Below are positions 13,469-30,957 of a stretch of DNA of 64,000 nucleotides, piece by piece. The stretch covers positions 1-64,000 of the IMG/VR virus record IMGVR_UViG_3300025132_000023, one strand, 5' to 3'. This DNA is from a virus. A model generated the notes under the pieces. That model saw only the letters and a program-made list of their open reading frames with translations, ran no database searches and had not been told where the DNA came from. Both the position numbers and the translations under genes were made by a program. Every line of letters begins with the position of its first letter. The stretch's first letter is position 1.

Positions 13469-14188
13469 TCAGAAAGTTGTATTAATAAAGTCAGAGATTG
13501 CTGTAGATGCTTGAACGAATGTCATATTAAAAGTTATAGTAGGCGTAGCGGCTCCTGATAAATCAGTTCCTACGTCAGTAATAAATCCTTCAATTCCTTT
13601 TATTTCATCGCTCATTGCTTCTATAGCATCAAATGTCCCTTTAGTTTCACCAACAGACCAATCAGGAACATCATACTTTCTATTTGCAAAACTAAATGGT
13701 ATTAAAGGTAATTCATCATGTGGGGTATTTTCATGCCCTGTTCTAATATCAAAGTTATCATCAACCCTGCTAGGCATTAATATAATTAATTTTGATGGAT
13801 TTTGGTCTTGCTGTAAGAAAGAAGAATCTACATAAGAATGTAATAGTTGTGCAATTTCATAACTTGTCATTTTTGCTCCTTTAGCATCTGCACTTCCAGA
13901 CCGCTTCCAAATAGTTTGGTCAGTAATAATGCCTCCTAAAGTAATTTGTTTTCTAGCCATTCCAGCATCCATAACCATAGTAGTTGATTCACCAGAAATT
14001 AGCCCAGAGAAAGGAACCTCAAATGGCATTGTTGTTTTTGCTGTGCTTATATTAAGGGTGTCACAATATAATCCTATTCTATTTGTATGGATTGTGGCCC
14101 CACTTTCCATAGGATTATTCTTTCTTCTAGCGAGTTCAAGCATAACATATACTGGGCCTTCTGACCTAATGTCTTTAATACTTACCAT
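13469..14188 (-). CDS. Distal-tail (Dit)-like protein
   Basis: Immediately after the tape measure gene; 239 aa; RKQITLGGII...EGFITD...TFNMTFV pattern. Call rests mainly on synteny. Confidence 0.45.
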   Translation of the reverse strand: MVSIKDIRSEGPVYVMLELARRKNNPMESGATIHTNRIGLYCDTLNISTAKTTMPFEVPFSGLISGESTTMVMDAGMARKQITLGGIITDQTIWKRSGSADAKGAKMTSYEIAQLLHSYVDSSFLQQDQNPSKLIILMPSRVDDNFDIRTGHENTPHDELPLIPFSFANRKYDVPDWSVGETKGTFDAIEAMSDEIKGIEGFITDVGTDLSGAATPTITFNMTFVQASTAISDFINTTF

Positions 14189-15618
14189 TATGTAAACCTC
14201 GTTGTTGTTGTGCCTGTTCTATTCATTCTAATATTAATCTCTCTTGCTACCTTTGTTGCCATATCTTTTACCTCTGCATCGGACGCACCTATGCGACCTT
14301 GAACATTTACTGTAATGTTTGTTGTATTACCCATCATTCTTTGAGAATCTGCATTAGTATGAACCCTAGACCCTCTTGGTAATGAAACTAATTCTGGGCC
14401 TTTTTCTCCAACAACTGTCATGTCTTCATTAACCGTTCCACCACCTGCTCTAAACTTAAATTTCATTGCCTTTGCAATTAATATTGCAATAACAGAACCT
14501 AAGGCATAGGCTAAAGCAGGTATCCACAATCCTGTTGTTATCAAAGTAACTGCGGCAGCAATTAAATATATTGCGGCATATATAGTAGCAACAAACCCTA
14601 TAAGTTTCTTTAACCCTCCCCAGAATTTATCTTTCATTGAAATTACATTCATAAATATTCCTCTAACAAGTAATTCTATTCCAGCAACAGCAATTGCAAC
14701 AACAATACCTAACATTCCCATAAGTCCTTGAAGTATCCCCATCACTACTTGCCCTAAGCCACCAAAGAATTTAGACCAATCTCCTTGTAATGCGCCAACT
14801 ACCATATTAAAAATGCCCCCTACAATCATTATAAGAGCATCAAAAATCATCTTAAAGTAAAACACTAACATTTTTCTAGTGCTTTGTAAGTAGGGCCAAA
14901 GTTCTTTAATAATAGTAACTATTACCAATATCCCAAATAAAATTACTGTTCCCCAAAGCATAGCACTTGCTATCATTTTTAACATTCCTTTTAGAACAGG
15001 GCCAATCAGTTTAGTAAATGCAGTTAATTTTTGACGTTGTTTAATAAAGAATTTATGAACCGGGTTTTTTGCCATTTCTAATTCTCTTTGATTTAATGAT
15101 TCTTGTAAAAGTCTATCTTCCGCTTCTTTAAGTTGTTTTTGTTGGGGTTCTAATATACCCGTAGTTTTTTTCCTCACATCTTCTTCATAGAAAGCGTCTG
15201 CATCATCAGCAGAAATTTCTCCTCTTCTAACTAACTCCTCTGTTAACATTTTTGATGCTTTCTCTATCGCACCGTATTCCTTAACAGTAGTAGCCGCAAT
15301 ATCTGCAAAGTCCTCAAAGGTAGTGTTTGAATCTAATAGTTTTGGATTTAATGTATCTAATGCATCTGCTAGTTGCACTTGTGCATTAATAGCAGCCATC
15401 ATTTGTTTATTGCCTTTTTCATGTCCTTCATAATACATTGCAAAGGCATCGGTAATAGCCCTAAATTTATTTTGAACTGCCCAGAAATTAGGTAAAATAC
15501 CCGATGCTGAACGACTAACTATTGTCCAAAATCTTGATTTGTTTAGCCCCATCATTACATCTTGTAGGCCTGTTGTTTGGGAGGAAAGGGCTTCAATAGA
15601 AGCGGATATTGAATACAT
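14188..15618 (-). CDS. Tape measure protein (short, 476 aa)
   Basis: Helical N-terminus, long hydrophobic/amphipathic middle, C-terminal RAGGGTV...VVGEKGPELVSLPRGSRVHTN motif typical of TMP ends; follows the tail chaperones. Confidence 0.8.
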   Translation of the reverse strand: MYSISASIEALSSQTTGLQDVMMGLNKSRFWTIVSRSASGILPNFWAVQNKFRAITDAFAMYYEGHEKGNKQMMAAINAQVQLADALDTLNPKLLDSNTTFEDFADIAATTVKEYGAIEKASKMLTEELVRRGEISADDADAFYEEDVRKKTTGILEPQQKQLKEAEDRLLQESLNQRELEMAKNPVHKFFIKQRQKLTAFTKLIGPVLKGMLKMIASAMLWGTVILFGILVIVTIIKELWPYLQSTRKMLVFYFKMIFDALIMIVGGIFNMVVGALQGDWSKFFGGLGQVVMGILQGLMGMLGIVVAIAVAGIELLVRGIFMNVISMKDKFWGGLKKLIGFVATIYAAIYLIAAAVTLITTGLWIPALAYALGSVIAILIAKAMKFKFRAGGGTVNEDMTVVGEKGPELVSLPRGSRVHTNADSQRMMGNTTNITVNVQGRIGASDAEVKDMATKVAREINIRMNRTGTTTTRFT

Positions 15619-16436: not shown

Positions 16437-18059
16437 TCACAGTATAACCCAGTTTCCATTGTATAAGCAACCATTGTCTTCTAGGGTTCGTGCCGATACT
16501 GCGAGAGCGACTTCTAATGCTCCTTTATCATCTGGGAAAGGAATGTCTACAGAAGTAGTTAAATAGTTATTAAACTTAAACTTAATGTATTCTCCGTTTG
16601 ACTTTGTAAACTCTAACTCAATTAACTTATCAGTTGAGGAAGTATCTGTTGTTTCATCCTGATTCCTTAATTCATCCCAAATAGTCCTGTCTGTTATTAG
16701 CAGGTTAAGGTTTAAATCATAAGTTCTTTGTCCTGCAATATGAGCAGAAGTAATAGTTCTGTCATAGTTTCCTATGAATCTTTGAGCAGTTAAGTTATTA
16801 GCGATTGCTAAAGAACCTCCTTTTACTCTAGCCATTTGTTGACCGTATATCTTAATAGAGCCATCAGAAAACATAAAGGGAGTAATATCGTCTGTGTCTG
16901 TTCCTGCATAATTGATTAAGTTTGTAACACTTGGCACGGCCTTTCTTGGAGCATAATGAGTTTCAGCATCATGTGCTTTTCTTGACATAGCACTTATAGA
17001 TGCCAATACCTCTTGGCCTTCCTCAAAGTTTAATGTAAGGGAGTTAACTTGACAGCCAGTATAAATTCTACTAAACATACTTTCTTTATTGGCATCTACC
17101 TTCCAAGGGGTAACGTTATTCTTTTCTGCTGTAATTTCTAAAGCAAACGAAGGTAAATCACCTGAATCGTTTTCTTTAATATTATATAGAATATCTGGAT
17201 ATATGCCATCAGTAGTGTTTATTGCCTGATAGTTAGTTAATGTGGCTCCACCGGGATATGATGCTAAAGGAGGAAATAGCCTTTTTACTGTTTGGCTTCC
17301 GTTATAATCATCTAATACTCTATGGAATGAAGCATTTGCAGTATTGCTTGTAATATGTGAATAGAAGCGATTAGTTATTAATGTATCTCCTGCTTCATTG
17401 CTAGTTCCACCTAATGAAGATGTAGTGTAGGTCATATCTCCTAAAGCATAATATAACCAAGAACCATTATTCAAAGCCACATCAAAAGATGCTTCTCCTA
17501 GTGTTTCTGCGGCCTTGTATTGATACCCAAAGTTTCTTGTTCCACCCATAGCAAGATTTAGTTGTTTCATTTCTACATCTACAGAAGGTGGTGTAATTGT
17601 ATTAACTAATCCTAACCAATGGTCTGCTGCTAATACTATGTCAGTATCATTTGCAGCAGGTGCAGGTAGTGGCGCACCATACCCATGAATTACTATTTTA
17701 AATCTGTTGTTATTAGTGGTAGATATTTGTTGATTAAAAGTAATTGAGTTTTGACCGTTAGATTTAATCCTAAGAGTTTGAGCAGTTTTACCAGAAATAG
17801 CAACGCCGCCATCATCTCTTTCTGTAATTGTTGCTAGACAACCCTTATACAAATCAGTCACTAATTTTATTCTAGTGGTTGCAGAAATTTTAACTGAGTT
17901 AAAATCAGAACCTGTTATTGTTAATGAGGGCAATGGCCCACACGCAATCAACGTTCCGTTCTTTCCACTTTCATCTATTAACGCACCTAAATCAAATTCT
18001 AATTCAGGTATCATACTTGCAGACAACCCTGCACCTGTGTATACTTCATTGTTTACCAT
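16437..18059 (-). CDS. Major tail tube protein with inserted domains
   Basis: Tube-like motifs (WLYYALG; LPSFALE...RIYTGCQVNSLTLNFEEG; GGSLAIANNL). No sheath gene is nearby, so the tail is probably non-contractile. Confidence 0.75.
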   Translation of the reverse strand: MVNNEVYTGAGLSASMIPELEFDLGALIDESGKNGTLIACGPLPSLTITGSDFNSVKISATTRIKLVTDLYKGCLATITERDDGGVAISGKTAQTLRIKSNGQNSITFNQQISTTNNNRFKIVIHGYGAPLPAPAANDTDIVLAADHWLGLVNTITPPSVDVEMKQLNLAMGGTRNFGYQYKAAETLGEASFDVALNNGSWLYYALGDMTYTTSSLGGTSNEAGDTLITNRFYSHITSNTANASFHRVLDDYNGSQTVKRLFPPLASYPGGATLTNYQAINTTDGIYPDILYNIKENDSGDLPSFALEITAEKNNVTPWKVDANKESMFSRIYTGCQVNSLTLNFEEGQEVLASISAMSRKAHDAETHYAPRKAVPSVTNLINYAGTDTDDITPFMFSDGSIKIYGQQMARVKGGSLAIANNLTAQRFIGNYDRTITSAHIAGQRTYDLNLNLLITDRTIWDELRNQDETTDTSSTDKLIELEFTKSNGEYIKFKFNNYLTTSVDIPFPDDKGALEVALAVSARTLEDNGCLYNGNWVIL

Positions 18060-18616: not shown

Positions 18617-18828
18617 TCTTTTTCCTCCTTACTTACTGCATATTCAAATTTTCTAAAGAAGTTATCTGCTGCATTATCTAATACCATGTCGTTATCTGCT
18701 GCTAAATCTTCTAAGCCCTGTAAAGCGAGTATCTCTTTTTCTATTTCTGCTCTTTCTTGTTCAATCTTTAATATCTTCTGAAACTCAAAAATAAGATTTT
18801 TCATTTCGCCCATATTATCACTAATCAA
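18592..18828 (-). CDS. Hypothetical protein (neck region)
   Basis: ORF fills the gap in the operon; the real start may be 18813. Confidence 0.5.
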   Translation of the reverse strand: MISDNMGEMKNLIFEFQKILKIEQERAEIEKEILALQGLEDLAADNDMVLDNAADNFFRKFEYAVSKEEKEWLNSLSS

Positions 18829-19957
18829 TTAAATGAAGTAACTGTTTCTTACCGTCTATTATCTGTTTGGCTTCTTCAACAAGTATATCATGCTTAGTCT
18901 TTAGGTCAATGTTAGCACCTGTTTCAGCAATTAATACTGTGTTATCATCGTGTAATAGCACTTCTGCTGCTACCATCTTTGTTGCTGCTTCGTGAATTGC
19001 CGCCGGAACCCTGCTTCCACCAATTTGATAAGTGACTTTTATTGCGTTGTTTTGAAGATAGGGCCAATTATTTCTAAAATAAATTCTGCCTTCTTCCTTA
19101 ATATCCCACCACTCTTCTCTTCTTCCGTAGGATTCTTTGTCTTCAAAAGAAATAGTGTTTATTTTTGTTAGAGTAGAACCTTGCCATTCCTCAATCGTGC
19201 ATATTGTTCCTGCGTCAGAAGGAAGTAGTGAAGAAATTTTAACCTTTGTTCCGTCATGGCTTGGGGAAGCATAAAAGAAATCGGAGATATTTTTGCCTGT
19301 ATGGTTTCCTCCACCATCTCCTGTATCGTTTTCTCCTGCAATAGTCTTAGGTTGGGTTTCCCCTGTGAATCCTGCGGTCTTTGTTGGGAACTTTTCATTG
19401 ATTGCATCGCATATTTGCAATACTGTTGTCTTTTGCCCTAAATGATTATAAAAACCATTAGCAACATTTCTGGGCACATTGAATCTTATTGTATTTGCTG
19501 CGCCCGGAGTTCCTACATAAAAGATATATTTATGGTTTTCAGTTGTAGTAGTTGGAGTTAATGTTGCCATAGCAGAAGCAATGTCTTGATATGAGTCACC
19601 TTTCCAAACTTCTAATCTAACTATTTTTCTAATGTTAGTAAATATTAATTGAATAAAACCAATATAATCTTTCCAATGTGATACAGGATACATAACATCT
19701 CTTGTTGCAATAAAATCATGGTGTTCTTTTTCTATAATTTCTGGTCTAAATGAAGTTTTAATACTATCATCTATTTTTCCTTCAACTCTTTTAATTATCT
19801 TTCCTACTTCTACATTTGTTGGGCTTGTCGCACCAGTAAATGTTTGACATTGTAACAATGCTGTTACATCTGAATGGGTAGTATAATACCCAAAACCAGT
19901 TCCATAATCTACCGCCTGTGATTGTGTGAAATCACTATCTGACTTTAATTTACTCAT
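18821..19957 (-). CDS. Head-tail adaptor protein with a central insertion
   Basis: N-terminal YTTHSDVTALL...IIKRVEGKID and C-terminal IKVTYQIG...VPAAIHEAATKMVA are typical of gp6/gp15-like adaptors. Confidence 0.65.
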   Translation of the reverse strand: MSKLKSDSDFTQSQAVDYGTGFGYYTTHSDVTALLQCQTFTGATSPTNVEVGKIIKRVEGKIDDSIKTSFRPEIIEKEHHDFIATRDVMYPVSHWKDYIGFIQLIFTNIRKIVRLEVWKGDSYQDIASAMATLTPTTTTENHKYIFYVGTPGAANTIRFNVPRNVANGFYNHLGQKTTVLQICDAINEKFPTKTAGFTGETQPKTIAGENDTGDGGGNHTGKNISDFFYASPSHDGTKVKISSLLPSDAGTICTIEEWQGSTLTKINTISFEDKESYGRREEWWDIKEEGRIYFRNNWPYLQNNAIKVTYQIGGSRVPAAIHEAATKMVAAEVLLHDDNTVLIAETGANIDLKTKHDILVEEAKQIIDGKKQLLHLID

Positions 19958-21057
19958 CTACTCATCCACCTTCTTATTTTTGACATTTGCCTTTTAATAT
20001 AAGAAACTATTGTTACGCTTTGGGTTCTATAAAAACGAGCCTGTCCACCTTCTTCTAATCCTTTACGGCTTCTCGGTTCTCCCCATTCTGGATTAATATC
20101 TTTGTGTCCACTTAGAACATATTTCTTTTGCCTCTTCCATTGTCTTGACTTCTCAGGAGAACGTTCTACCATGTTTCTGAAACGATATTCTTTTGTGACC
20201 TTAAAATCTATATCATTTAATCTATAGACACCAAGAGATTCAGCGAGGAAAGGATTGTTTTTGAGATATTTTGCGTCACCAAATTGAGCCTCCATCTCCA
20301 ATGTTAAAACACCTACCTTAGTAGGAATAATTGCGTTGTCTATTTCTGCTGCAATATCTTTTACTTTCATTAAATTATCCCAATCTAAATCTAATTTTGT
20401 ATCTCCAGCCTCTGGGGTTCTATTTCCAAAAAATCTTCTTTCTGGGTAAGGTGATTTTTTAGGAGCATGAACGATAGGCTTTGTGTTTCTAACTTTTTGA
20501 GACTCTCTTAATTTTTTTGAATGGCCTTTTTTACCAAAGGCTAATAGTATTTCTGATTCAAAAGCATTAGGCTTTTTCTTGTCACCCTCTACTTCAATGT
20601 GGTCAATAACAAATTTGGCTTCTGCTTCACTATATGGTTTAATGTCTGGGAATTTAAACTTAGGTTCGCCTGTGTCTGGGTCTAAAACTTTCTCTCCTTT
20701 ACTGTTAACTACACCATATACCATGTTTCTAACAGTAGTAATACTAATAACACCTGTTTGATAAGCGTATTCAATTATATCTAAATCTCTATCACTTAGT
20801 TCAACATCTCCTGCAAACCCGCCTTCTCTTTCTATTAGTTTATTAAGTGCTCTCTTAGTATTAACCTTAAGCCACATTTTTTCATCTTTGCCAGTAAAGT
20901 CTTTCCATCCTTTAGGATACCATGATGCAGAAATTGCAGTTACATCAGGTAGTTCTCTTTTATAATCTGGGTTTAGTGACCCATCATCAGGGTTTACAAC
21001 GTCCTTAAGTTCTTTTAATACTTGCATATTTAATCCCCCGTAAATAAACTTACCCAT
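19954..21057 (-). CDS. Hypothetical protein
   Basis: 367-aa ORF in the operon; the real start is probably 21027. Confidence 0.6.
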   Translation of the reverse strand: MGKFIYGGLNMQVLKELKDVVNPDDGSLNPDYKRELPDVTAISASWYPKGWKDFTGKDEKMWLKVNTKRALNKLIEREGGFAGDVELSDRDLDIIEYAYQTGVISITTVRNMVYGVVNSKGEKVLDPDTGEPKFKFPDIKPYSEAEAKFVIDHIEVEGDKKKPNAFESEILLAFGKKGHSKKLRESQKVRNTKPIVHAPKKSPYPERRFFGNRTPEAGDTKLDLDWDNLMKVKDIAAEIDNAIIPTKVGVLTLEMEAQFGDAKYLKNNPFLAESLGVYRLNDIDFKVTKEYRFRNMVERSPEKSRQWKRQKKYVLSGHKDINPEWGEPRSRKGLEEGGQARFYRTQSVTIVSYIKRQMSKIRRWMSR

Positions 21058-21995
21058 TCTTTATCTGTCATTTTCCTAGCCATAGTTTCTACTTGGTTGC
21101 CTGACGATACAATTCCTTCTTGATGTATACCTTGTTGTGACATTATATCTGCTATCACTTCATCAAAGTTAATTTTAATAACTACTTTCTGTTGAGTTAA
21201 TTTGCCGGTCTTTTTACTATTAGCAATCTCTTCTTCTGTTACATTAATATGCATATATTTATATATATTCTGTTCCTTAATTAATTTTTTAAGGTCTTCA
21301 TCATCTAGTAATTCTTCATCGCGGTCTTCTTGTTCCTCAGTTTCATTAAGTAAATGTTTCCAGCCCTTTCTTTTAAACTTCCTATGATGTATGGAACCTT
21401 TTATACCTGTGCTTTTTCTATCATCACCATCATCAATATCAAATAGAGTATCTACTTCCTTTAGTGCTTTCCTATACGGTAAGACATTTTCCCCTGCAAC
21501 ATATAATTCTGTTCCTTTTTTGCTTTTTACTTTGTGTGCAGATGATAACCACTCATAACCTATTTTCTCAAATACATCTTTCATCTGCATTGTTTTTGCT
21601 TTATCACTTAAATTTGTCATTAACGCAACATATGGGTCTTTATCACCTGTGCCACTTGCAAATCCTTTAGTGTATTTATAAAATTGTTCTGGAGTTAACT
21701 CTTCTATTTGTTTCCATGTGTCTTTAACAAATCTCTCATATTCAACAGCACTAAATTCCATATCGTTTTCGTCTTGAGCGTCTTCTAATAGAGTCCAATT
21801 TAAGAAATGTTTTAGGTTCTTAGTAATATTTGTAAAGTTCTTTGGTGAAAAAGGAGCGACTATATATTTAAGCATAAGCAAGGCTATGTCATTATCCAAT
21901 AAATCTCCAGAGAGGTCGGCAGAATCAATTACGATTGGTTCAGAACCAATTGTATATTCTGTTCCGTCATAACGGATTGTACCGGGAATCCTCAT
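21030..21995 (-). CDS. Hypothetical protein
   Basis: 321-aa ORF in the operon. Confidence 0.6.
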   Translation of the reverse strand: MRIPGTIRYDGTEYTIGSEPIVIDSADLSGDLLDNDIALLMLKYIVAPFSPKNFTNITKNLKHFLNWTLLEDAQDENDMEFSAVEYERFVKDTWKQIEELTPEQFYKYTKGFASGTGDKDPYVALMTNLSDKAKTMQMKDVFEKIGYEWLSSAHKVKSKKGTELYVAGENVLPYRKALKEVDTLFDIDDGDDRKSTGIKGSIHHRKFKRKGWKHLLNETEEQEDRDEELLDDEDLKKLIKEQNIYKYMHINVTEEEIANSKKTGKLTQQKVVIKINFDEVIADIMSQQGIHQEGIVSSGNQVETMARKMTDKEWVSLFTGD

Positions 21996-22004
21996 TTATA
22001 CCAC

Positions 22005-22709
22005 TTAAGCCAACCAAGCGGCCCAAGCAGCACCTTTAGAAATCATCTGCCCTAGACCTAAACCACTTCTAGGCGGAGTATAGGTCATTTGACCCGTATT
22101 AGGGTCTATCCAATAAGGGTTCCCCATTGTATCTGTGCCTTGTGGTGGAATAGGATAACCGGACGCGTTATTAAACGCTTGTTGTTGTGCATACATCTGT
22201 TGATTAATCTGAGTCGCCTGTCCACCCCCTTGAATCATTGATGGGTCTACGCCACCTTGAACAGGCATTCCGGCTACAGGAGCCATTGTTGGAGCCTGTG
22301 GTGCAGGGGCAGTAAAGCCCTGTGACTCTAAATACTGACTCTTTGCCATCTTTCTTTGATAAACCACTTCTGAATTAATAGCAGTAGCCAATAGTGTTTG
22401 TAAATCTAACTGTATATTAGCATCAGTAATCTGTTGATATTCTGCTATAACAGTAGGAGTAACTCCTAATTCTGTTCCTGTTCCAACAGTATCTAATCTT
22501 AGTTTCGCTAATTGTTGACTAACAACTCTTTCAACAACATCTTCCAATAACTTATCAAGTGCAGTTAAAAACTGTTCTCCGTGATATTGGAAAAATTCTT
22601 CTACATGATTTTCCTGTAGCGTTAGTAAGTTATTAGTGGCTTTAAATTGTGCTTGTGTGTTAGCATCCATTTGCCTTGCAAGGGTTTTATTTGATGTTCC
22701 AAATACCAT
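22005..22709 (-). CDS. Hypothetical Gln/Pro/Gly-rich protein with a C-terminal amphipathic helix
   Basis: Helical N-half, low-complexity QP-rich C-half, ends GLGQMISKGAAWAAWLA. Confidence 0.65.
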   Translation of the reverse strand: MVFGTSNKTLARQMDANTQAQFKATNNLLTLQENHVEEFFQYHGEQFLTALDKLLEDVVERVVSQQLAKLRLDTVGTGTELGVTPTVIAEYQQITDANIQLDLQTLLATAINSEVVYQRKMAKSQYLESQGFTAPAPQAPTMAPVAGMPVQGGVDPSMIQGGGQATQINQQMYAQQQAFNNASGYPIPPQGTDTMGNPYWIDPNTGQMTYTPPRSGLGLGQMISKGAAWAAWLA

Positions 22710-22710
22710 A

Positions 22711-23403
22711 TTATTGTGCCTCCGTAGTGTTTGATGTTGGAGTTGTTATTTCTTCCTTTGGAATAATTTTAGCACCCTTAGTCATTAACTCAATAACTCT
22801 TTTATTGATACCATTTTGTTCCATTGTTAAACGGAAAAGTTCGTCTTCTGCGTTTTCATTCTGCATAGCGGGAGGTCTAATAGTCCACCCCACTCCTGAC
22901 AAACTCTCAATATCGGATTGCCTTAATGAAGTTAGCGGTGCTGCTTGCAACATTTTAGGTACTTTAGGCATAGGTATGTATGATTCAAAAGAAAGGCCGT
23001 GTTCATCGGCTATTATCTGCTGCTCTAACATCTCATATTGTCTATGTAATTGTGAATGTTTCTCACAATAAGTGCCTCTCATTGGATAACCCTTTCTAAC
23101 TTTGTGAAGAGGTATTGTTGGTCGCATTGGGTCAGAAGCCTCCCAGACCTTATGCGTTCCACATACAACACATCTATCCTTAGTATTGAATTTATAACTG
23201 TAAGGTATCTTTAAAAATGACTTTCTTTCAGGCCAAAGAACCTTTAGCATTTCTTTAAGTTGTTTCTTTGGTTTAGAACTCTTATAATCATATTGCATTA
23301 TACCTCCTGCTGCCCTAGCAAACTTAATGGGCGGTAAGAAAGGGTTTGCTGCGGTAGCAGTAGAAGCATCTATTAAAGAAGGAGGGCTATATGTCATTGT
23401 CAT
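22711..23403 (-). CDS. Zinc-finger protein
   Basis: CVVC...YCEKH motif; GGTGA RBS upstream. Confidence 0.6.
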   Translation of the reverse strand: MTMTYSPPSLIDASTATAANPFLPPIKFARAAGGIMQYDYKSSKPKKQLKEMLKVLWPERKSFLKIPYSYKFNTKDRCVVCGTHKVWEASDPMRPTIPLHKVRKGYPMRGTYCEKHSQLHRQYEMLEQQIIADEHGLSFESYIPMPKVPKMLQAAPLTSLRQSDIESLSGVGWTIRPPAMQNENAEDELFRLTMEQNGINKRVIELMTKGAKIIPKEEITTPTSNTTEAQ

Positions 23404-23411
23404 TTTATCAC

Positions 23412-23627
23412 CTAGTTACTATAAATATATCCTTCTGCTACGTTTTTTAATCCTTCCATCATATTAGGCTTACCTTTATTTTCTTTAATGTATCTCATTA
23501 CTATTGAATCCAAAGTTGCTACTTCTCCTTGCCCTTCATAGCCCTGTGCTGCATCCCACAAATGTTGAAACTTTCTTTTAAAGTCGTTGTAAAGTTGTGC
23601 TTCATTTTTTAATATTATATCCCACAT
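23412..23627 (-). CDS. Small protein with N-terminal W-x-x-ILK tag
   Basis: Starts MWDIILKN. Confidence 0.6.
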   Translation of the reverse strand: MWDIILKNEAQLYNDFKRKFQHLWDAAQGYEGQGEVATLDSIVMRYIKENKGKPNMMEGLKNVAEGYIYSN

Positions 23628-24295
23628 TAGTAATCCTCAATCATTGTTGCTACGCCACGATAAACCATTTCTGAATCTGATTTTGCACTTACTATATATT
23701 TGTATGTTGGTATTCCTTTTTCATTTAGTTTATTCATTCCGTCTTTAAATGCGTCAAATATATGATGTTGTTGAATGTCTTTAAATTGATATGTATCTTT
23801 CCATAAGTCAAATTTGTTTGCCCATATTCCTACTGCTTTTGGATAATCTTTATCTGATTTTTTGTATTTCTTATTTACCATATCCCAATAAGGAGCGCAT
23901 ATTGTATCAACTAAAAATGTCCAGCACAATTGTTGTTCTATATCAAAGTGTTTTGTTAAATGTCTATCGTCAATCATAAAGATAATATATTCTACCTTTC
24001 TTTTTCTCATATCATATAGCCATTCATTCCAATATGTTGTTTCGCCTCCTATGTCTGATGTTTTGATTGTATGTTGGTCACCGTCAATTTTAATTGTTTT
24101 TCTCATTGCTCTTTCTCGACCAACGGTTCTTCTTTTAATTTCCGGCACATCTCCTCTTGTTCTTAATTGGTGGTGTAATGTTGTTTTTCCAACTTGTGTT
24201 GCGCCATATACTCCAACTGCGTGCGGATTTATTTTCTTCCAAAGTAGTCCTAACTGTTCTATACAGATGATTACGAATCCCGTCATTACCGACAT
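23627..24295 (-). CDS. Small Ras/Arf-like GTPase
   Basis: G1 GATQVGKT, G2 T (RRTVG), G3 DIGG, G4 NKFD, G5 SAK; hydrophobic N-terminal helix. Confidence 0.85.
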   Translation of the reverse strand: MSVMTGFVIICIEQLGLLWKKINPHAVGVYGATQVGKTTLHHQLRTRGDVPEIKRRTVGRERAMRKTIKIDGDQHTIKTSDIGGETTYWNEWLYDMRKRKVEYIIFMIDDRHLTKHFDIEQQLCWTFLVDTICAPYWDMVNKKYKKSDKDYPKAVGIWANKFDLWKDTYQFKDIQQHHIFDAFKDGMNKLNEKGIPTYKYIVSAKSDSEMVYRGVATMIEDY

Positions 24296-24303
24296 TCAAT
24301 CAC

Positions 24304-24522
24304 CTAGAAATGAAATATTGAAGTTAACCCTCCCCAAGCAGAACTAAAGATATTTATACCAAAGGAAGGCAATGCATGGCCTATGCAAAAACTACATACA
24401 GAAGCGATGAACCCCCAAAAATAAAATCTTGCTCTTAGAAACCAAACATCGGCTGAATGCGCTCTTTGCATATCGTATGCTAAAGCAGTTTCATCCATTC
24501 CAAATGCTATGGCTTCTAACAT
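24304..24522 (-). CDS. Small membrane protein
   Basis: Hydrophobic segment FYFWGFIASVCSFCIGHAL and an amphipathic tail. Confidence 0.6.
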   Translation of the reverse strand: MLEAIAFGMDETALAYDMQRAHSADVWFLRARFYFWGFIASVCSFCIGHALPSFGINIFSSAWGGLTSIFHF

Positions 24523-24526
24523 TTAA

Positions 24527-24928
24527 TCACTCAACCTGTGCTAAGAAAGAAGGAGATACCGTTTGTGGTTCCTCTGCCTTTTGTGCTAGGTTGTTTATAG
24601 GAACCCTGTTCCAAGAATTATTAAACTGTTGAAGACTTTGGCGAACCTTTTCTCTTTGCTGTTCATCCCTAGCCTTTCTGTTCCAATAAGCAGCAATTCT
24701 TCTATCTAATAGAGTCATCTCTATATAATCATTTAAGGCAAGGTCAAAGACCGCCTTCATTACAAGTATTCCACCAATAGTCATTAGCGAAAATACTACT
24801 GCGTGTGCATAGTGTGAAAAGGCAAGCAAATTGCCATATTCAGCATAAAAGAAAACATTTATGCCACTAATGCAACCAACGAATAATATCGTCATTACAA
24901 GTTTTGTGTCTTTTTCTAATGCGGGCAT
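24527..24928 (-). CDS. Two-TM membrane protein with a coiled-coil tail
   Basis: Two hydrophobic helices followed by a charged helical C-terminus. Confidence 0.65.
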   Translation of the reverse strand: MPALEKDTKLVMTILFVGCISGINVFFYAEYGNLLAFSHYAHAVVFSLMTIGGILVMKAVFDLALNDYIEMTLLDRRIAAYWNRKARDEQQREKVRQSLQQFNNSWNRVPINNLAQKAEEPQTVSPSFLAQVE

Positions 24929-24932
24929 CTAA

Positions 24933-25244
24933 TCATCTCGCTTGAGCAGAAACGATTAATTGACCAACGGTTCTACCTGTTGTAGCCGTTGCCTTTAAAT
25001 ACAGACCAATTCCCAACATTGCCCCATGATAGTCCAAATCCAGCGTAGTATTTGCAGCAACAACTATCGTTGCAAACAAGTTATCATCAGCATCACTTGT
25101 GTCATCATATAGATGAACAGTCTGTGCTACTGCATCTGAATTATGCAATTTAATAGACATAAGTTTACACCTATGTCCTATCAATTGTTTTACTTCATCG
25201 CCAGCACCAGCGTTCTTAAACACATAATTTAGTGAACCTGCCAT
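24933..25244 (-). CDS. Small beta-rich virion protein
   Basis: LMSIKLHN...VHLYD...GIGLY pattern common in capsid-associated phage proteins; downstream of the capsid genes. Confidence 0.5.
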   Translation of the reverse strand: MAGSLNYVFKNAGAGDEVKQLIGHRCKLMSIKLHNSDAVAQTVHLYDDTSDADDNLFATIVVAANTTLDLDYHGAMLGIGLYLKATATTGRTVGQLIVSAQAR

Positions 25245-25315
25245 AATCGCATCTCCTGTGAATGGTGTGAGGGTGTGCTTCCCTTATGAATGTTGTTGAA
25301 AAAATGTCGTGTGTA

Positions 25316-25350
25316 GTGACCTATGGCCCCGTTAAGGAGCCATAGGCCAC
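25316..25350 (-). terminator. Stem-loop after the capsid/decoration genes
   Basis: GTGACCTATGGC...GCCATAGGCCAC inverted repeat, with a T6 run about 12 nt downstream on the minus strand. Confidence 0.55.
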
Positions 25351-25364
25351 ATTTATTTACAATC

Positions 25365-25715
25365 TTAAAGATTGCCCCAAACTCTAACTAGAATGGTGGT
25401 AGCGGTCATAGACCCATTAGCCAGTTCCGCGTCATTCGCATTGGAGTTATCCAGCAGTATTATCGTAAAGGATGACCCAGAAGCATAAGCCCCTGCATCT
25501 GAACATTCAACCTGCGCTTCATAAAGAGCAGATTGGGAGTTCCCCGTTATGGTAACAGCATTTATGGTGTTTAGGCCCAAAGAAGCAGCCGTTACAACAT
25601 CCGTATTAGCGTATGTTGTCATAACTACTTTTGCATCCACATAATATTCATCACCTGATACTCTAGGTGTAGTCATACCTTTGTGGTCAGCCAAAACTGT
25701 TGCGGTTAATGCCAT
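25365..25715 (-). CDS. Capsid decoration / cement protein candidate
   Basis: 116-aa beta-rich protein directly after the MCP; AGGTGAT RBS. Confidence 0.55.
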   Translation of the reverse strand: MALTATVLADHKGMTTPRVSGDEYYVDAKVVMTTYANTDVVTAASLGLNTINAVTITGNSQSALYEAQVECSDAGAYASGSSFTIILLDNSNANDAELANGSMTATTILVRVWGNL

Positions 25716-25726
25716 ACTTAATCACC

Positions 25727-27151
25727 TCACGCACTACTTAGGTTGGTTATCTTACCTTGTCCCTTAAAGAAGGAACAACCAGTCTCTGCAATCGTGCGGT
25801 ACATAGCCTGATTGCCGAGTTTTGCAACACCGAATGGGTTGCCGTGGTCAATACCATCCTCAAAGTATTGGGTTGGCTTCATAACAGATAGCCACAGGTG
25901 GTCTGTGTCTAGTATAAGCATATCACTTAGGTCTGTTGCAGCAGCCGTCTTTGTGGTAGAAGGCATATCCTTGCAAGGTATGATGGGTATGTCGAAGTAA
26001 GTAGCGACCCTAAAGCCGACTTCTGACCCCTTTACACCTCTAACACCATTATGGGTAGGGATAATCTCCTTTCTGTCCATAAATCGCTCTTGGGACTGTA
26101 GTAAGTCACCAATGTGCTGAATGGTGTCATATCCTGTTAGGATAACCTTTGGGCTTCCTCCAGCCTCTCTAATGTTCCTTAACGCCTTGTTAAGGATTGT
26201 TAGAGTTAATGGCCTAGTAGCAGAGTAATCTCCACCATAGTCCACATAACTGTCAATAAAGCCACCATCACCAGAAACGGTGATTGCTCCATTAGCCCCA
26301 GAAGAAGTTCCGGGGTTTCTTGCAGTATTACCGTATAACGTGTAAACCTGTGGTTCTGCTCCTGTTGAAGCATCGGTCTTACCATCATGTAGCATATCCT
26401 CGTTATACATCTCACCAATCTCAGCCTTTGAAGAAACTATCTTCATTAAAGAAGTGTAGTTTAGTCCAACGTTTTGTTCTGCATAAGACTTTCCACCTAC
26501 GTCATACTGTTCAAGAGGCAATAGTAGCATTGCATTCTGAACTTCAGCATGGTGCTTACCCATGTCTTCACGGATTAGAGCGCGTATGTCTCCAACACCG
26601 TCATCAATCTTTGCCATCTCAAGAGCCAATTCTGAGAACTCAAACAAATGAGCCACAGTCTTTGGGCTGGTCTTAAGTTGTGCATAGGTTGGTGTAATCG
26701 CAGAAATGGTTCCGATTGTTGTGTCAGAATCAGCATTAATTGGCGCGTTTTCACCGTATGCTCCTAGCATATCTGCTCTTAGGCTATCTGCACCCTTTGC
26801 GACAGTATTGCTAGTATCAAACGCTCCTGAGTTGAACTTGTTGTTACCGCCACCGGCTGCTCTCTTCTCTAGCACTCTCCATCCAGAAGCCGTATATGGC
26901 CTCTTTGGAAGCATTGCCAAAGCATTACATTCTTGGTTTATCATTGACCATACTTTCTTACCGTATGCAATGTTATATAGGGCTGATACTGCCGTTGGGC
27001 CACCGCCGGTTAAACCGCCTAATGAACCATCGTGGGCTGAACCTAGTCCACCGACAACACCTGCTGCCTTAAGCAGCGAATTTCCCTGACCGCCCCTAAT
27101 TCCATAGGTTGCGGCTTCCAAATCTCTCATTGACTTAATATATCCACTCAT
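25727..27151 (-). CDS. Major capsid protein (HK97 fold)
   Basis: Follows the protease; YGKKVWSMINQE..., PKTVAHLFEFSE, PKVILTGYDT, VATYFDIPIIP, QGKITNL; elevated GC and strong RBS. Confidence 0.9.
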   Translation of the reverse strand: MSGYIKSMRDLEAATYGIRGGQGNSLLKAAGVVGGLGSAHDGSLGGLTGGGPTAVSALYNIAYGKKVWSMINQECNALAMLPKRPYTASGWRVLEKRAAGGGNNKFNSGAFDTSNTVAKGADSLRADMLGAYGENAPINADSDTTIGTISAITPTYAQLKTSPKTVAHLFEFSELALEMAKIDDGVGDIRALIREDMGKHHAEVQNAMLLLPLEQYDVGGKSYAEQNVGLNYTSLMKIVSSKAEIGEMYNEDMLHDGKTDASTGAEPQVYTLYGNTARNPGTSSGANGAITVSGDGGFIDSYVDYGGDYSATRPLTLTILNKALRNIREAGGSPKVILTGYDTIQHIGDLLQSQERFMDRKEIIPTHNGVRGVKGSEVGFRVATYFDIPIIPCKDMPSTTKTAAATDLSDMLILDTDHLWLSVMKPTQYFEDGIDHGNPFGVAKLGNQAMYRTIAETGCSFFKGQGKITNLSSA

Positions 27152-27162
27152 ATTTAATCACC

Positions 27163-28398
27163 TTAGTTTTCAAACTCCGAAATGAAGTTGTGAATCTCTC
27201 CCCAAGACATTTCAGAAACATCTGGAACATCAATGGTCTGGGTTTGAGCCTTAACAATCTCATCAGACTGAGCAGTTAAAGACTTTCTAAGAAGAGAGAA
27301 CTCTTCCTTAAGTGCTTCAACTTCATTCTTTGCATCATACTCGTTTCGGGCAACAGAAGCCTTTCTTACGTCTTGCTCCTTTACGAATCTCTCCTCAAAG
27401 CGGGACTTTAGAGAGTCATAAGCCATCTTCTCTAACTGTTCTGCTTTGAAAGCCTCGTATGCCTTCTCTACATTCTCGGTGCTAAGGTCTAGTGTTGAGA
27501 AGTCTTCGTTAGTCCACTCCTTGTATAACTGTCCCATTTGTGCGCCTTGTGGGTGTTTCTTTGCAGTTGAATCATGGTCAGGTAACCTGCCATCCTCAAC
27601 AAAGCCTTCAGGCCCCGTTTTGCCCTTAGCATAATTATCGAAGTCTGAGTGTTCTACGTCAGAATCCTCGGACTCGTCATCAAAGTCCGTTGCTTCCTTT
27701 TCACCGTCATACTCATCTTCGCTTCCTTCGGAGTATTCAACGTCCATAGATTCTTCGTCCATATTGACGTCATCTACAGGCATTTCTTCTCCTTCTTCCT
27801 TTTTGAGGTTGTTAACTTCTGCCATAAGGCCGTTAAGTTCCTCAAGTGCTTTTTCCAATCTCTCAGTCATGTCACTCTTCTCCTCCTTTAATATGTCAAA
27901 CTTTGCTTCTGGGTTTATTCCTTTCTCACAAATTGTTACTTCATGGAGTTCTAACTTATCTATTTCATTATACTGGCCCAAGTCTTCGCTTGTTTTTTGC
28001 CTCTTTGATAATGCTTGTCCACCTATACTGAATGAACGTAGGGTTCCTTTTCTAATCCCTCTTTGAATTTCTTTTGCTTTTTCTATGTCATCTCTTAGTT
28101 TAATAACAACATAAAAGCCTACATCGTCTACTTGTGTTTGGTGAAGATTTCCGTTTTTATCTCTATACTTCTCTATTACATCCCCGACTTGAACATTTGA
28201 ATGATTTGACATTACGTTTCTATATTTTGGGGTTGTCATATATTTGTTTACTGCTTCTTCTAATGCTTTCAATGTAATTAAATCATTTTGTTTATCTACT
28301 ATTTCTATTGAAGCGTATCCACCAATAACTAAATCATCTGATTTTAATATCCTAAAGTTTCCTTCTGTATCCGACTTAAGCAGTTGGGCTTCCGACAC
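27163..28398 (-). CDS. Prohead protease fused to an acidic coiled-coil scaffold
   Basis: IGGYASIEIVDKQNDLI, HSNVQVG, LRSFSIGG, LHEVTICEKGINPEA match HK97-type protease motifs; acidic helical C-half. Confidence 0.9.
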   Translation of the reverse strand: MSEAQLLKSDTEGNFRILKSDDLVIGGYASIEIVDKQNDLITLKALEEAVNKYMTTPKYRNVMSNHSNVQVGDVIEKYRDKNGNLHQTQVDDVGFYVVIKLRDDIEKAKEIQRGIRKGTLRSFSIGGQALSKRQKTSEDLGQYNEIDKLELHEVTICEKGINPEAKFDILKEEKSDMTERLEKALEELNGLMAEVNNLKKEEGEEMPVDDVNMDEESMDVEYSEGSEDEYDGEKEATDFDDESEDSDVEHSDFDNYAKGKTGPEGFVEDGRLPDHDSTAKKHPQGAQMGQLYKEWTNEDFSTLDLSTENVEKAYEAFKAEQLEKMAYDSLKSRFEERFVKEQDVRKASVARNEYDAKNEVEALKEEFSLLRKSLTAQSDEIVKAQTQTIDVPDVSEMSWGEIHNFISEFEN

Positions 28399-28440
28399 AT
28401 TACCACTTCCTTAATTTACTATATGAAGTCCACGATATTA

Positions 28441-30957
28441 CTAAACTTGCATGGTTAACTTTTTATGCCTGTCTTCAGTAATATCCCATATTCCTTCGTC
28501 TTTATCCTTATCTAGCATTTTCTGCTTAATGCCTGTCCAAACCACCCATGTATCTTTTTTCTTTACAGGAACTACTCTAAAGTGTAATCTAGTCTCAAAC
28601 TTATCACCATTTAATTTATATTCATGGTAACCATGCCTTTGCACTCCTAACTCAATCTCTCCAGAATCTAACAATTTATCTCTTGTTGTCTTCGTAGAAA
28701 CTTGTGCAGGAAACTTACCTGATTTTCCAAATAAGTTGTAAATATCTTCTGCATCTTCTATATCAATTGTCCATGCCATTTCTTTATCGGACGTTCTAAT
28801 AACCATTTCTAAGTTATCATCACTACCGTGGTATAATAAAAACTTACCGTTCTTTGGTGTCTTTTCTGCTTTTATTAATTTATCTCGGTTGGCAGTATAT
28901 TTATCCTTACTTACTTTAATAAAATCATCTTGGTCATTCATCCAATTAACCATTCTTTTAATTTCACCTGACCACAAATCTTCAACTAACTTAGGTATCT
29001 TCTCTTTACAGAAATTAAATATCTCATTTATATGTAATCCCTTCTCCTCTGTATCTATTTCTTGTAAATACGCTTTGATTGCTACTCTAGCATCTCCAGA
29101 CTTTGCCTTCATTAACTCTTCAATTTCATGCTTCCACATATCCATGTCGGCTAAAGCATTCTTTTCCATTAAAGAATCTCCGCTAAAACCATACACAGTA
29201 AACCCTTCAAAATCTGATTTCATTATTATATCTGCTTCACCGTGAACACCATCAGTTATTACAAACTTTGTTAATGCGTCTTTAACATCATACTTTAATG
29301 ATTTTCTACCTTCTTTAGATAATAGGTCTAATGTAATTAATTTCTCTGGAGCATCTACTTCTGGGATTTCTATTACCTTTGCAGTATATAGTTTATATCC
29401 ACCATTGTTCTTTCTAACTTCATCAACCTTAACTCTTACAATATCTCCAACATCTACCTTTTCTTTAGTATTTAATGCTTTACCAACTGCTAGATATTTT
29501 AGACCTTTTAATTCTGTACCCCCATGTTCTCTTGCTTCTTCTCCGCTAAGTGGCCCTGCTCCTAAAGTATAGGAATTAAGGTTAGACTTAGTAGATTTCT
29601 TATCTAATACAATTAAATCTAAATCTACAAACTTCTTTAATTTAATCCACTTGGGATTTTTCCTACTACCAATATAATAAGTAGACTCTATGTCTTTGAT
29701 AACAACGCCCTCAGAAGTTGGTAATTCCATAATGTCTTTTGAATATTTTTCTATTTCTGATAAAGAATCTGCTATTCTAGTATTCTTTTTATTAGGGAAT
29801 CCTAGTTCATCAGAAGAATGTTGTGCTAACTGATAGAATAGAATGTTTATCCGTTCTCTTAATGGAGTATCAGTTACATTCTTTCCTTCGTGATGTAGTA
29901 TGTCAAACACCCTAGCCTTTAATTTTGCTTCTGGATATTTTCCTTTGAATAGGTGTGCAATAGTATCTGCACGGTGTAATGGTTCATCACCATCATATAA
30001 TATAATTTCAGCATCAAAGATACTATCACCAAATCTTTTTTGGTCTAGTTTGTCAACAATATCTTTACATTTGGAAGTAATATCTTTTTCATTATATGAA
30101 TAGATTTTAACCTTGTCTTTTATTTTATGTAGTTGAACTCTAATGCCATCGTATTTTTCTTGAACTACCCACTCTCCACTAAATCCTTTAAGGTCTTTAA
30201 TATCATTGACTTCAAATATTCTATACATGGGCTTGTTTGGTACTATAAAATCTGTCTCTTCTTTTTCTTCTTCAGACTTTTCTTCTTTTGCTTTCTTTAG
30301 TCTAATTGCTATTAATGCTTCCCAATCTTCTTCTGTGTTGTCCACTAAGAAAACTTTCTTTAATAATTCTAACGCTGGCTTAAACTTGGGTTTAACCTTA
30401 GAAGTATCCTTATCATCTCCATAGTGTTCTATAATGTAAATAGGTATGTCATCTAATCTAAGGTCTAATCCCATAGCCCCCTCAGAAATGTTACCTATGT
30501 TCACATCGTTCTTCTCCCATGCCGCCGCAGATATACTGTGTGCGTGCGTCCGTAAGGCATAGTGTATGAACATAGCATATATAGAGGGTTCAGTTACAAA
30601 CGTTTCTATAACATTATCTCCCAATTGTTTAGCAAAGGGGTCATTAACTTCGTCAGAATTATAACGCATTCTTTTAATCTGAGCATATAAATCCCTTGCT
30701 TGACTAGACTCTGCATCAAGTGCATTCTTATCAAAAACAACGTCTTCATCTAAATATCTTTTCATTTCATTAGTAAAACTACTAAGTCCATCAAAATCAT
30801 CTCTTATCTTCTTAACAGACTTTCTCCAGTCTTTACCATATTCAGTAGGGTCTTCTCTCGCAGATAAATATCTATATCTTACATCTTCATAGAAGTCAAG
30901 GACACGCTTCGCAAGCCCTGCATTCTTTTTGCGAAAGAAGAGTCCAGACTGTGCCAA
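28441..30957 (-). CDS. lig: ATP-dependent DNA ligase with long N- and C-terminal extensions
   Basis: Motif I QEKYDGIRVQLHK, FDAE, VFDIL, EGVVIK, WIKLK, followed by an OB-fold-like region. Confidence 0.85.
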   Translation of the reverse strand: MAQSGLFFRKKNAGLAKRVLDFYEDVRYRYLSAREDPTEYGKDWRKSVKKIRDDFDGLSSFTNEMKRYLDEDVVFDKNALDAESSQARDLYAQIKRMRYNSDEVNDPFAKQLGDNVIETFVTEPSIYAMFIHYALRTHAHSISAAAWEKNDVNIGNISEGAMGLDLRLDDIPIYIIEHYGDDKDTSKVKPKFKPALELLKKVFLVDNTEEDWEALIAIRLKKAKEEKSEEEKEETDFIVPNKPMYRIFEVNDIKDLKGFSGEWVVQEKYDGIRVQLHKIKDKVKIYSYNEKDITSKCKDIVDKLDQKRFGDSIFDAEIILYDGDEPLHRADTIAHLFKGKYPEAKLKARVFDILHHEGKNVTDTPLRERINILFYQLAQHSSDELGFPNKKNTRIADSLSEIEKYSKDIMELPTSEGVVIKDIESTYYIGSRKNPKWIKLKKFVDLDLIVLDKKSTKSNLNSYTLGAGPLSGEEAREHGGTELKGLKYLAVGKALNTKEKVDVGDIVRVKVDEVRKNNGGYKLYTAKVIEIPEVDAPEKLITLDLLSKEGRKSLKYDVKDALTKFVITDGVHGEADIIMKSDFEGFTVYGFSGDSLMEKNALADMDMWKHEIEELMKAKSGDARVAIKAYLQEIDTEEKGLHINEIFNFCKEKIPKLVEDLWSGEIKRMVNWMNDQDDFIKVSKDKYTANRDKLIKAEKTPKNGKFLLYHGSDDNLEMVIRTSDKEMAWTIDIEDAEDIYNLFGKSGKFPAQVSTKTTRDKLLDSGEIELGVQRHGYHEYKLNGDKFETRLHFRVVPVKKKDTWVVWTGIKQKMLDKDKDEGIWDITEDRHKKLTMQV

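Follow-up and report, generated by a model that had tools for sequence, protein, structure and literature searches.

The virus record IMGVR_UViG_3300025132_000023 of IMG/VR comprises 96,167 bp and is rated 100% complete. It was analyzed over its first 64 kb, hereafter the window, in which the minus strand carries nearly all genes as far as ~57 kb. On that strand, shared with the capsid and tail genes, lies a compact group of five genes, spaced 1–9 nt apart or overlapping, which encode two small membrane proteins (TM133 and TM72), a small GTPase, a zinc protein (Zn230) and a glutamine- and proline-rich protein (QP234; Table 1). An earlier note, made from the sequence of the window, had listed a GTPase with two membrane proteins, a zinc protein and a Q/P-rich protein at 22005–24928, and the corresponding open reading frames (ORFs) were all recovered there on the minus strand. 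These genes form a strictly conserved cassette in two clades of magroviruses, and the most constrained of them encodes a divergent GTPase of the Ras superfamily that, together with its neighbors, may act at the host membrane late in infection.

Gene order is tightly kept among the relatives of this virus (clade 1). In a first sample of 80 IMG/VR loci found through the GTPase, it runs, as far as each contig reaches, protease, capsid, g116, (g103), TM133, TM72, GTPase, Zn230, QP234, a variable large protein and g378, with TM133 in the same position at 79 of the 80 loci, TM72 directly upstream of the GTPase gene at all of them, and QP234 present at every locus long enough to include that position. 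A second sample, designed to avoid choice by the GTPase, was picked by the capsid protein alone, for which the homologue search returned, among the matches listed, only close relatives (identity of at least 59%). In this sample, the GTPase was found at 48/48 loci with at least 3.6 kb of downstream sequence, and all five genes occurred in the same order at 39/39 loci extending at least 5.5 kb downstream. Compared with the window, median identity is highest for the GTPase (69%), followed by Zn230 (62%), the capsid protein and QP234 (59% each), TM72 (58%) and TM133 (49%). When a 96%-identical relative is taken as reference, the ratio of non-synonymous to synonymous substitution rates amounts to 0.07 in the GTPase, 0.13 in TM72 and 0.14 in TM133, with all four other genes at 0.13–0.28. 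All five cassette genes are under purifying selection, with the strongest constraint in the region on the GTPase.

A profile search of 1.84 billion representative proteins yielded only 86 matches at E ≤1e-3, and the 50%-identity neighborhood of the GTPase consists of one representative, to which a handful of full-length relatives at ~30% identity can be added. A distant relative, P0131, led to 80 more viral contigs of up to 118 kb (clade 2), in which the GTPase is ~32% identical to that of the window and is embedded in a comparable series of genes, encoding a protein with one or two transmembrane (TM) helices, a small TM protein of ~80 amino acids (aa), the GTPase, a ~300-aa protein, a ~200-aa Q-rich protein with an MGLFG-like start, and an extra small 2-TM protein. 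Profile comparison with hhalign relates the GTPases of both clades with a probability of 100% (E 7e-44), Zn230 to the protein directly after the clade-2 GTPase at 97% (E 1.3e-10, with a common MRGTYC..H motif), and QP234 to its positional homologue at 88% (E 3e-6). Four near-complete clade-2 genomes carry a capsid gene 45–48% identical to that of the window, 20–24 kb downstream of the cassette and on the same strand, and the GTPase was present in 10/10 capsid-selected clade-2 records with enough upstream sequence. It lies ~21 kb upstream of the capsid gene in those records for which the distance was worked out, one of them a 106.9-kb genome with terminal repeats. Since clade 2 keeps the gene order at this distance, the cassette was relocated as one block inside the late arm; within the two sampled clades, which are deeply diverged, it is universal and mobile as a unit. 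The placement within a morphogenesis operon proposed in the earlier note consequently describes clade 1 and does not extend to clade 2. Synteny across related viruses, which the note had suggested as a check, proved strict, and the GTPase is not sporadic in either clade. The surroundings of the clade-2 cassette differ among contigs: in several contigs (loci L084, L086 and L167) a thermosome-like chaperonin gene lies immediately upstream, and in other contigs the neighbor is a ~2000-aa protein. Among magroviruses, a thermosome gene is characteristic of groups A and D (PMC5434244).

The 222-aa GTPase carries a complete set of G motifs. In an alignment of 35 homologues (58–96% identity), complemented by wider sets of 59 clade-1 and 55 clade-2 sequences, G1 reads GATQVGKTT in the window (GxxxxGKTT), with G31, G36, K37 and T38 invariant in the 35 sequences, and the P-loop GxxxxGK[ST] is found in all 59 and all 55 members of the wider sets. 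T57, G83, G84, N160, K161, D163, S203, A204 and K205 are likewise invariant among the 35, and D81 is conserved in at least 90% of them. Switch I contains an xT[V/I]G motif, and an interswitch Trp stands 11 residues after the G3 Asp in 59/59 clade-1 and 49/49 clade-2 sequences. The residue that follows DxGG is Glu in 45/59 clade-1 GTPases and Gln in the other 14/59, as well as in 35/55 of clade 2. The G5 motif is SAK throughout clade 1 (59/59) and ATK or SAQ in clade 2. A polybasic insert is located between helix 3 and strand 5, before G4. According to the sequence and an AlphaFold model, a helix spanning residues 2–22, with an invariant E13 and a mean Eisenberg hydrophobicity of 0.48, directly precedes strand 1; its uncharged run in clade 1 is only 12 residues, below the length of a standard TM helix. 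The N-terminus is MS and not MG, so that the protein is without a Gly2 myristoylation site. Two clade-2 GTPase genes (G330:C1:24365-25078 and G334:C1:44485-45192) each contain one in-frame TGA, which may come from a sequencing error, from recoding or from decay into a pseudogene. A distant homologue, P0137 (264 aa), has a Cys-rich insert (CYKC...GGGCGC) after G4 that forms a zinc knuckle inside the G domain; clade 1, unlike P0137, has its zinc site on a separate protein.

The predicted structure of the GTPase agrees with its motifs. The AlphaFold model presents six strands and five helices in G-domain order (predicted local distance difference test, pLDDT, 65; predicted TM-score, pTM, 0.65), and Foldseek matches it to Ras, Arf and G-alpha with a probability of 1.00, the best TM-score (0.52/0.63) being to GerdArfR1. 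The top rows in VIA are Arl3, Arl1, SRbeta, Arf1 and Arf6, at Z 11.4–11.2 over ~155 residues, with GerdArfR1 at Z 10.7 and with G-alpha and Rag chains within 1 Z of the top Arl/Arf/SRbeta rows. Alignment, model and both structure searches thus bear out the small GTPase with all of G1–G5 and a hydrophobic N-terminal helix that had been read from the sequence. Similarity at the sequence level is weaker. The protein falls below the curated cut-offs for Ras (18.2 vs. 21.6 bits), MMR_HSR1 (19.6 vs. 21.9) and TIGR00231 (25.1 vs. 42.5), and its matches to Pfam, NCBIfam and PDB profiles (Ras, MMR_HSR1, Roc, SRPRB, TIGR00231 and Rab33B) are all sub-threshold and limited to the N-terminal half. A few homologues carry a precomputed PF00071 or PF08477 assignment; among the 35 aligned GTPases, MMR_HSR1 is matched by 31, SRPRB by 30 and Pfam Arf by 15, and the best PDB profile match is Rab33B. 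We file the protein as a divergent Ras-superfamily GTPase with Arf/Sar/SRbeta affinities. It is not filed as a member of the Arf family because of its SAK G5, the missing Gly2, the replacement of the catalytic Gln by Glu in most of clade 1, and the polybasic insert before G4. The label Arf/Ras-like given to it earlier therefore stands as regards Arf-like traits (N-terminal helix, DxGG and Trp) and fails on the features that define Arf proteins, a CAT/CS G5 and Gly2.

For the four partners of the GTPase (TM133, TM72, Zn230 and QP234), searches of Pfam, NCBIfam and PADLOC gave no match and PHROG none that is informative, and PADLOC returns no defence family for any cassette protein. Hydropathy and conservation across 66 sequences predict two TM helices in TM133 (approximately residues 10–28 and 41–60) and a charged C-terminal tail; its weak PHROG matches are all to families without known function. 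Residue 12 of TM133 is an invariant Met that stands right before the first TM helix, behind a charged 11-residue leader, and could be a second start of the holin/antiholin kind. TM72 begins with a highly conserved soluble segment (DE..LAYD.QRAHSAD.WF), followed by a single TM helix. Zn230 is predicted to be soluble, with long helices and a zinc site made up of invariant residues (C78-x2-C81 ... C113-x2-H116); for its model (pLDDT 68) no known fold could be detected, with no PDB sequence match, no Foldseek match, a best VIA-wide Z of 3.9 and Atlas scores of at most 0.80. A complex of the GTPase (residues 20–222) and Zn230 (residues 20–212) predicted with GTP and Mg scored 0.00, the fold of Zn230 being itself uncertain, so that the score weighs neither for nor against contact between them. 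QP234 combines a conserved N-terminal helical region, a low-complexity middle rich in Q, P, M and G, a conserved aromatic motif (GNPYWIDP.TG), and a conserved hydrophobic C-terminal helix that ends in WAAWLA. In its C-terminal third, the conserved motif GNPYWIDPNTGQMTYTPP resembles by eye the core of a WW domain (G..Y[YW].[ND]..T..T.[WY]..P); the Pfam WW family is not matched. Membrane elements are thus present in four of the five proteins, as two TM helices in TM133, one in TM72, the N-terminal helix of the GTPase and the hydrophobic C-terminus of QP234.

The GTPase family appears to be virus-specific. Among 185,579 prokaryote species, represented by one genome each, relatives occur in only four contigs, three of them in a single metagenome-assembled genome (MAG) labeled Maricaulis and one in an archaeal MAG (G001). 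Those inspected (L165–L167) show viral gene order, and the four contigs are read as mis-binned or virus-derived. No match was found in 38,880 PHROG families or in 50,697 GenBank phage records. Furthermore, a search of the main texts of papers found none that mentions a GTPase in magroviruses and none that describes the cassette.

The surrounding genes place the virus among the magroviruses (Table 1). The capsid protein has haloarchaeal tailed viruses and one Methanofastidiosa virus as its only GenBank phage relatives, and the record beyond the window encodes a family B DNA polymerase, a second ligase, a ribonucleotide reductase, nucleases and AAA ATPases. For group B of the magroviruses, Philosof et al. 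(PMC5434244) describe two ligases, one of them in the structural module, a ribonucleotide reductase and a tRNA-Leu, and all are found here. By its gene content, the genome is a complete 96-kb magrovirus with several group-B traits.

Table 1. Features of the cassette and of its genomic surroundings (window coordinates).
Feature	Position	Strand	Basis or remark
TM133, 133 aa, first cassette gene	24527..24928	-	ORF; hydropathy
TM72, 72 aa	24304..24522	-	ORF; hydropathy
Small GTPase, 222 aa	23627..24295	-	ORF; motifs; model
Accessory ORF, 71 aa, between GTPase and Zn230 genes	23412..23627	-	Not part of the conserved cassette
Zn230, 230 aa, C2CH zinc protein	22711..23403	-	Alignment
QP234, 234 aa, Q/P-rich	22005..22709	-	ORF; family conservation
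Hairpin (GGCCTATGGC ... GCCATAGGTC) then TTTTTT, just past the g116 stop, before g103	25295..25345	-	Read from sequence
SU10-type major capsid protein	25727-27151	-	
S78 prohead protease	27163-28398	-	
ATP-dependent ligase domain, within structural arm	28441-30957		
Portal	34796-36433		
Head-tail adaptor-like protein g378	18821-19957		
Tail tube protein	16437-18059		
Tape-measure protein with TM segments	14188-15618		
tRNA-Leu	63721		

Further ORFs lie within or next to the cassette. The 71-aa ORF between the GTPase and Zn230 genes has no match at any of the 80 related loci. In the 96%-identical relative (L003) an unrelated 71-aa ORF fills its slot, and in a related strain (run X2) one DNA contig passes from 23385 directly to 23624, leaving it out; it is a strain-specific insert. 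Its N-terminus is MWDIILK, and none of the five cassette proteins begins with an MxWxxILK-like N-terminus. Because this ORF is absent from relatives and skipped in the related strain, small genes of the MWDIILK type seem to be gained and lost in the gaps between conserved ones. An antisense ORF of 131 aa (22676–23071, plus strand) was rejected as a gene, since the minus-strand genes that it overlaps are conserved and under purifying selection. Between QP234 and g378, the minus-strand slot at 19954–21995 is occupied in relatives (L004–L080) by a highly variable protein of 467–1326 aa and in the source genome by two ORFs of 321 and 367 aa with a 28-nt overlap, which points to a split gene or, alternatively, to a hypervariable protein for host interaction.

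The earlier note had remarked that no holin or endolysin is recognizable in the window, and Pfam scans agree. Across 128 scanned ORFs of the complete genome, they recovered families of replication, repair, ubiquitin-like activation and structural proteins, and no holin, endolysin, amidase, glycosidase or non-prohead peptidase among the matches listed (25 of the 34 matched families in the last batch). The cassette proteins likewise match no holin or cell-wall hydrolase family in Pfam or PHROG. Three more small 2-TM ORFs are encoded in the replication arm, at genome positions 65024–65443, 66467–66793 and 83140–83412, none with an informative family match (the last has a sub-threshold EF-hand and one PHROG of unknown function), and they are alternative holin-like candidates. 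In Adrikavirales, by contrast, a holin together with a LytA-like protein has been reported (PMC11706807). The cassette genes keep together, the GTPase occurs consistently and the scans turned up no canonical lysis system, so that nothing that the earlier note had named as speaking against a membrane-remodeling module for egress, lysis or assembly was encountered.

The interpretation that we rank first, at a probability of roughly 0.4, is that the five genes specify a virus-specific GTPase switch acting at the host cytoplasmic membrane late in infection, in a membrane remodeling process that ends in egress or rupture. TM133, TM72 and the N-terminal helix of the GTPase would place the complex at the cytoplasmic membrane, where the GTPase would alternate between its GTP and GDP states, while Zn230 and the C-terminally anchored QP234 would be its soluble or peripheral partners, serving as regulator and scaffold, respectively. 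The output would be a remodeling of the membrane that releases tailed virions by timed rupture or massive vesiculation, so that the cassette would take the role that holin and endolysin have in bacteriophages. We infer late transcription from operon position only, partner binding and GTP hydrolysis are likewise proposed, and membrane remodeling and egress are put forward from topology, the late-operon position and analogy. Egress is ranked first because the genome presents no other lysis candidate with a known family and because the release of archaeal tailed viruses is an open problem, having been called completely uncharacterised (PMC10791045). Moreover, the membrane logic of a small GTPase with a zinc partner exists in archaea, since ArvABC drives vesicle formation in Haloferax (PMC10927574).

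Several observations weigh against an egress role. Bacteriophage lysis genes usually evolve fast and are swapped, whereas in this region the GTPase surpasses every other gene in conservation, the capsid protein included (69% vs. 59%). Glu in place of the catalytic Gln in 45/59 clade-1 sequences means that intrinsic GTP hydrolysis may be slow or absent. Such strong conservation, together with Glu as the catalytic residue, speaks against a simple holin-like role and agrees with a regulated switch dependent on partners. Between the clades, the two TM proteins are without detectable similarity (hhalign probability 2%), their equivalence being positional only. Haloviruses lyse their hosts without the cassette, which therefore cannot be a general egress route of archaeal tailed viruses. 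Lastly, when three metatranscriptome runs and one DNA run were compared with positions 21000–28400, RNA contigs fell only on the g116, capsid and protease genes (90–95% identity), and none on the cassette. The hairpin and T-run past the g116 stop are a possible transcription attenuator, which would part the highly expressed capsid–g116 pair from g103 and the cassette; one RNA contig, which spans 25377–26089, stops short of the hairpin, a weak hint only.

Other roles can be conceived for a membrane-associated GTPase in the late arm. As an assembly or packaging factor, the GTPase module would tether or time procapsid assembly, DNA packaging or head–tail joining at the membrane, with no part in release. 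This would suit a universal cassette encoded in the structural arm and on the strand of the morphogenesis genes in both clades, and it would account for a GTPase conserved above the capsid protein, as expected of a protein with several conserved partners. The halovirus HVTV-1, however, whose protease, capsid and adaptor are homologous to those of the window, has only small genes between capsid and adaptor, with no P-loop protein and no cassette, and the cassette is therefore not needed for the building of an HK97-type virion as such. Its position relative to the capsid gene also varies, from directly downstream to ~21 kb upstream, and these two observations together identify it as an independent module and not as a core part of virion building. 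In addition, no PHROG structural family is matched, and we know of no membrane-anchored assembly factors in tailed viruses. We consider an assembly role unlikely. In a role in entry, the membrane proteins and the GTPase would be packaged, ejected, and form or gate a DNA channel in the membrane of the next host. Podovirus ejection proteins are membrane-active and encoded within the structural operon, and in clade 1 the cassette does sit between head and neck genes; the virus, however, has a TM-bearing tape-measure protein, which normally serves that role, and a GTP-dependent enzyme would presumably find no nucleotide supply inside a capsid. We regard this role as very improbable, and as the least favored of those discussed here.

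Manipulation of the host membrane with no role in release, be it through ArvA-like vesicles acting as decoys or removing receptors, through superinfection exclusion or through an internal replication compartment, is somewhat harder to set aside than entry, and still less likely than assembly. ArvABC provides a precedent, and the polybasic insert and N-terminal helix would fit peripheral membrane binding. Furthermore, OapB occurs in 0/121 genomes of the order of G001, vs. 110/251 of its phylum, and the presumed host lineage may for this reason lack a vesiculation GTPase system of its own, which we take as a lead only. Set against this, the cassette is not homologous to ArvABC, the virus has neither OapB nor a DUF2072 match, and the cassette is invariant and located in the late arm, whereas genes for takeover and exclusion tend to be early and variable.

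The egress interpretation has a more specific form, in which the five genes would constitute a self-contained, GTP-timed and coat-like machine, with a membrane-inserting GTPase, two membrane receptors, a zinc regulator and a self-associating Q/P scaffold, that ruptures or vesiculates the archaeal membrane for release. This version is tentative and rather unlikely; if true, it would give archaeal tailed viruses their first known egress system, and membrane deformation driven by Arf and Sar would have a virus-borne counterpart outside eukaryotes. In the surface ocean, magroviruses are described as belonging to the most abundant viruses of archaea (PMC5434244, PMC11706807). A small GTPase that is universally conserved in the sampled clades, apparently restricted to viruses and encoded with membrane proteins offers a concrete and clonable candidate for the egress of archaeal tailed viruses, and would extend the control of membranes by GTPases, known from eukaryotic Arf and Sar and recently from archaeal ArvA, to the viruses of prokaryotes. 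Should its role prove instead to lie in host manipulation or assembly, it is still unusual for a tailed-virus lineage to have a small GTPase among its core genes.

Comparison with known systems helps to delimit what is shared and what is particular to the cassette. With Arf, Arl, Sar1 and SRbeta, including the Asgard GerdArfR1 (PDB 8OUM/8OUN), the viral GTPase has in common the G-domain fold, a membrane-type N-terminal helix, a DxGG[Q/E] G3 with interswitch Trp, and the xT[V/I]G switch I. It differs from that branch in its Ras/Rab-type SAK G5 (not CAT/CS), the frequent Glu of clade 1, the lack of Gly2 and the polybasic insert before G4, in a sequence similarity that remains sub-threshold and confined to the N-terminal half, and in being encoded by a tailed virus.

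In Haloferax, the small GTPase ArvA has an N-terminal amphipathic helix, drives the formation of extracellular vesicles, and has its gene in the company of those for ArvB (DUF2073/OapB) and for ArvC, a zinc-ribbon protein (PMC10927574). The euryarchaeal ArvABC system (OapABC) acts on an archaeal membrane and resembles the cassette in pairing a small GTPase that bears an N-terminal membrane helix with the gene of a zinc-binding protein; a motif near the P-loop, IG[IV]YGP..[AV]GKTTL, is found in both ArvA and the clade-2 GTPase (hhalign 95%, 39 columns). Beyond such a pair, the cassette includes TM133 and TM72 as integral membrane proteins and the Q/P-rich QP234. Membership of the GTPase in the ArvA family was rejected: 11 ArvA genes taken from loci beside OapB score 9.5–16 bits against the hidden Markov model of the viral family, below Rab33B (24.8 bits at the same database size), and hhalign relates ArvA to the viral GTPase at 90% over only 62 columns, from the P-loop to G3. 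PF09846 (OapB/ArvB) matches the Haloferax and Methanosarcina controls but nothing in the entire 96-kb genome, and Zn230 has no DUF2072 (ArvC) match in the Pfam scan. Compared with archaeal small GTPases, a group to which the earlier note had pointed, the viral protein has a fold like that of GerdArfR1 and no affinity to ArvA, and the cassette and ArvABC are alike by design, not by descent.

Phage lysis cassettes can sit between head and tail genes, as in P2, and class II holins are small 2-TM proteins. TM133 is similar in size, in its two TM helices (a topology deduced from hydropathy), in its charged tail and in its location between capsid and tail genes. The virus cassette differs by matching no holin or endolysin family and by a conservation much above that of typical holins, and no known lysis cassette includes a GTPase. 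The minimal coats of COPII and COPI, lastly, consist of Sar1 or Arf1, a TM or peripheral guanine-nucleotide exchange factor, a zinc-finger GTPase-activating protein (Sec23 or ArfGAP) and, in Sec31, a proline-rich component. No sequence or fold similarity was found for any cassette partner of the GTPase, and the resemblance is one of analogy only; as a parts list, nonetheless, the cassette is the same, with a membrane-inserting GTPase, a membrane partner, a zinc-containing protein and a low-complexity protein rich in Pro and Gln.

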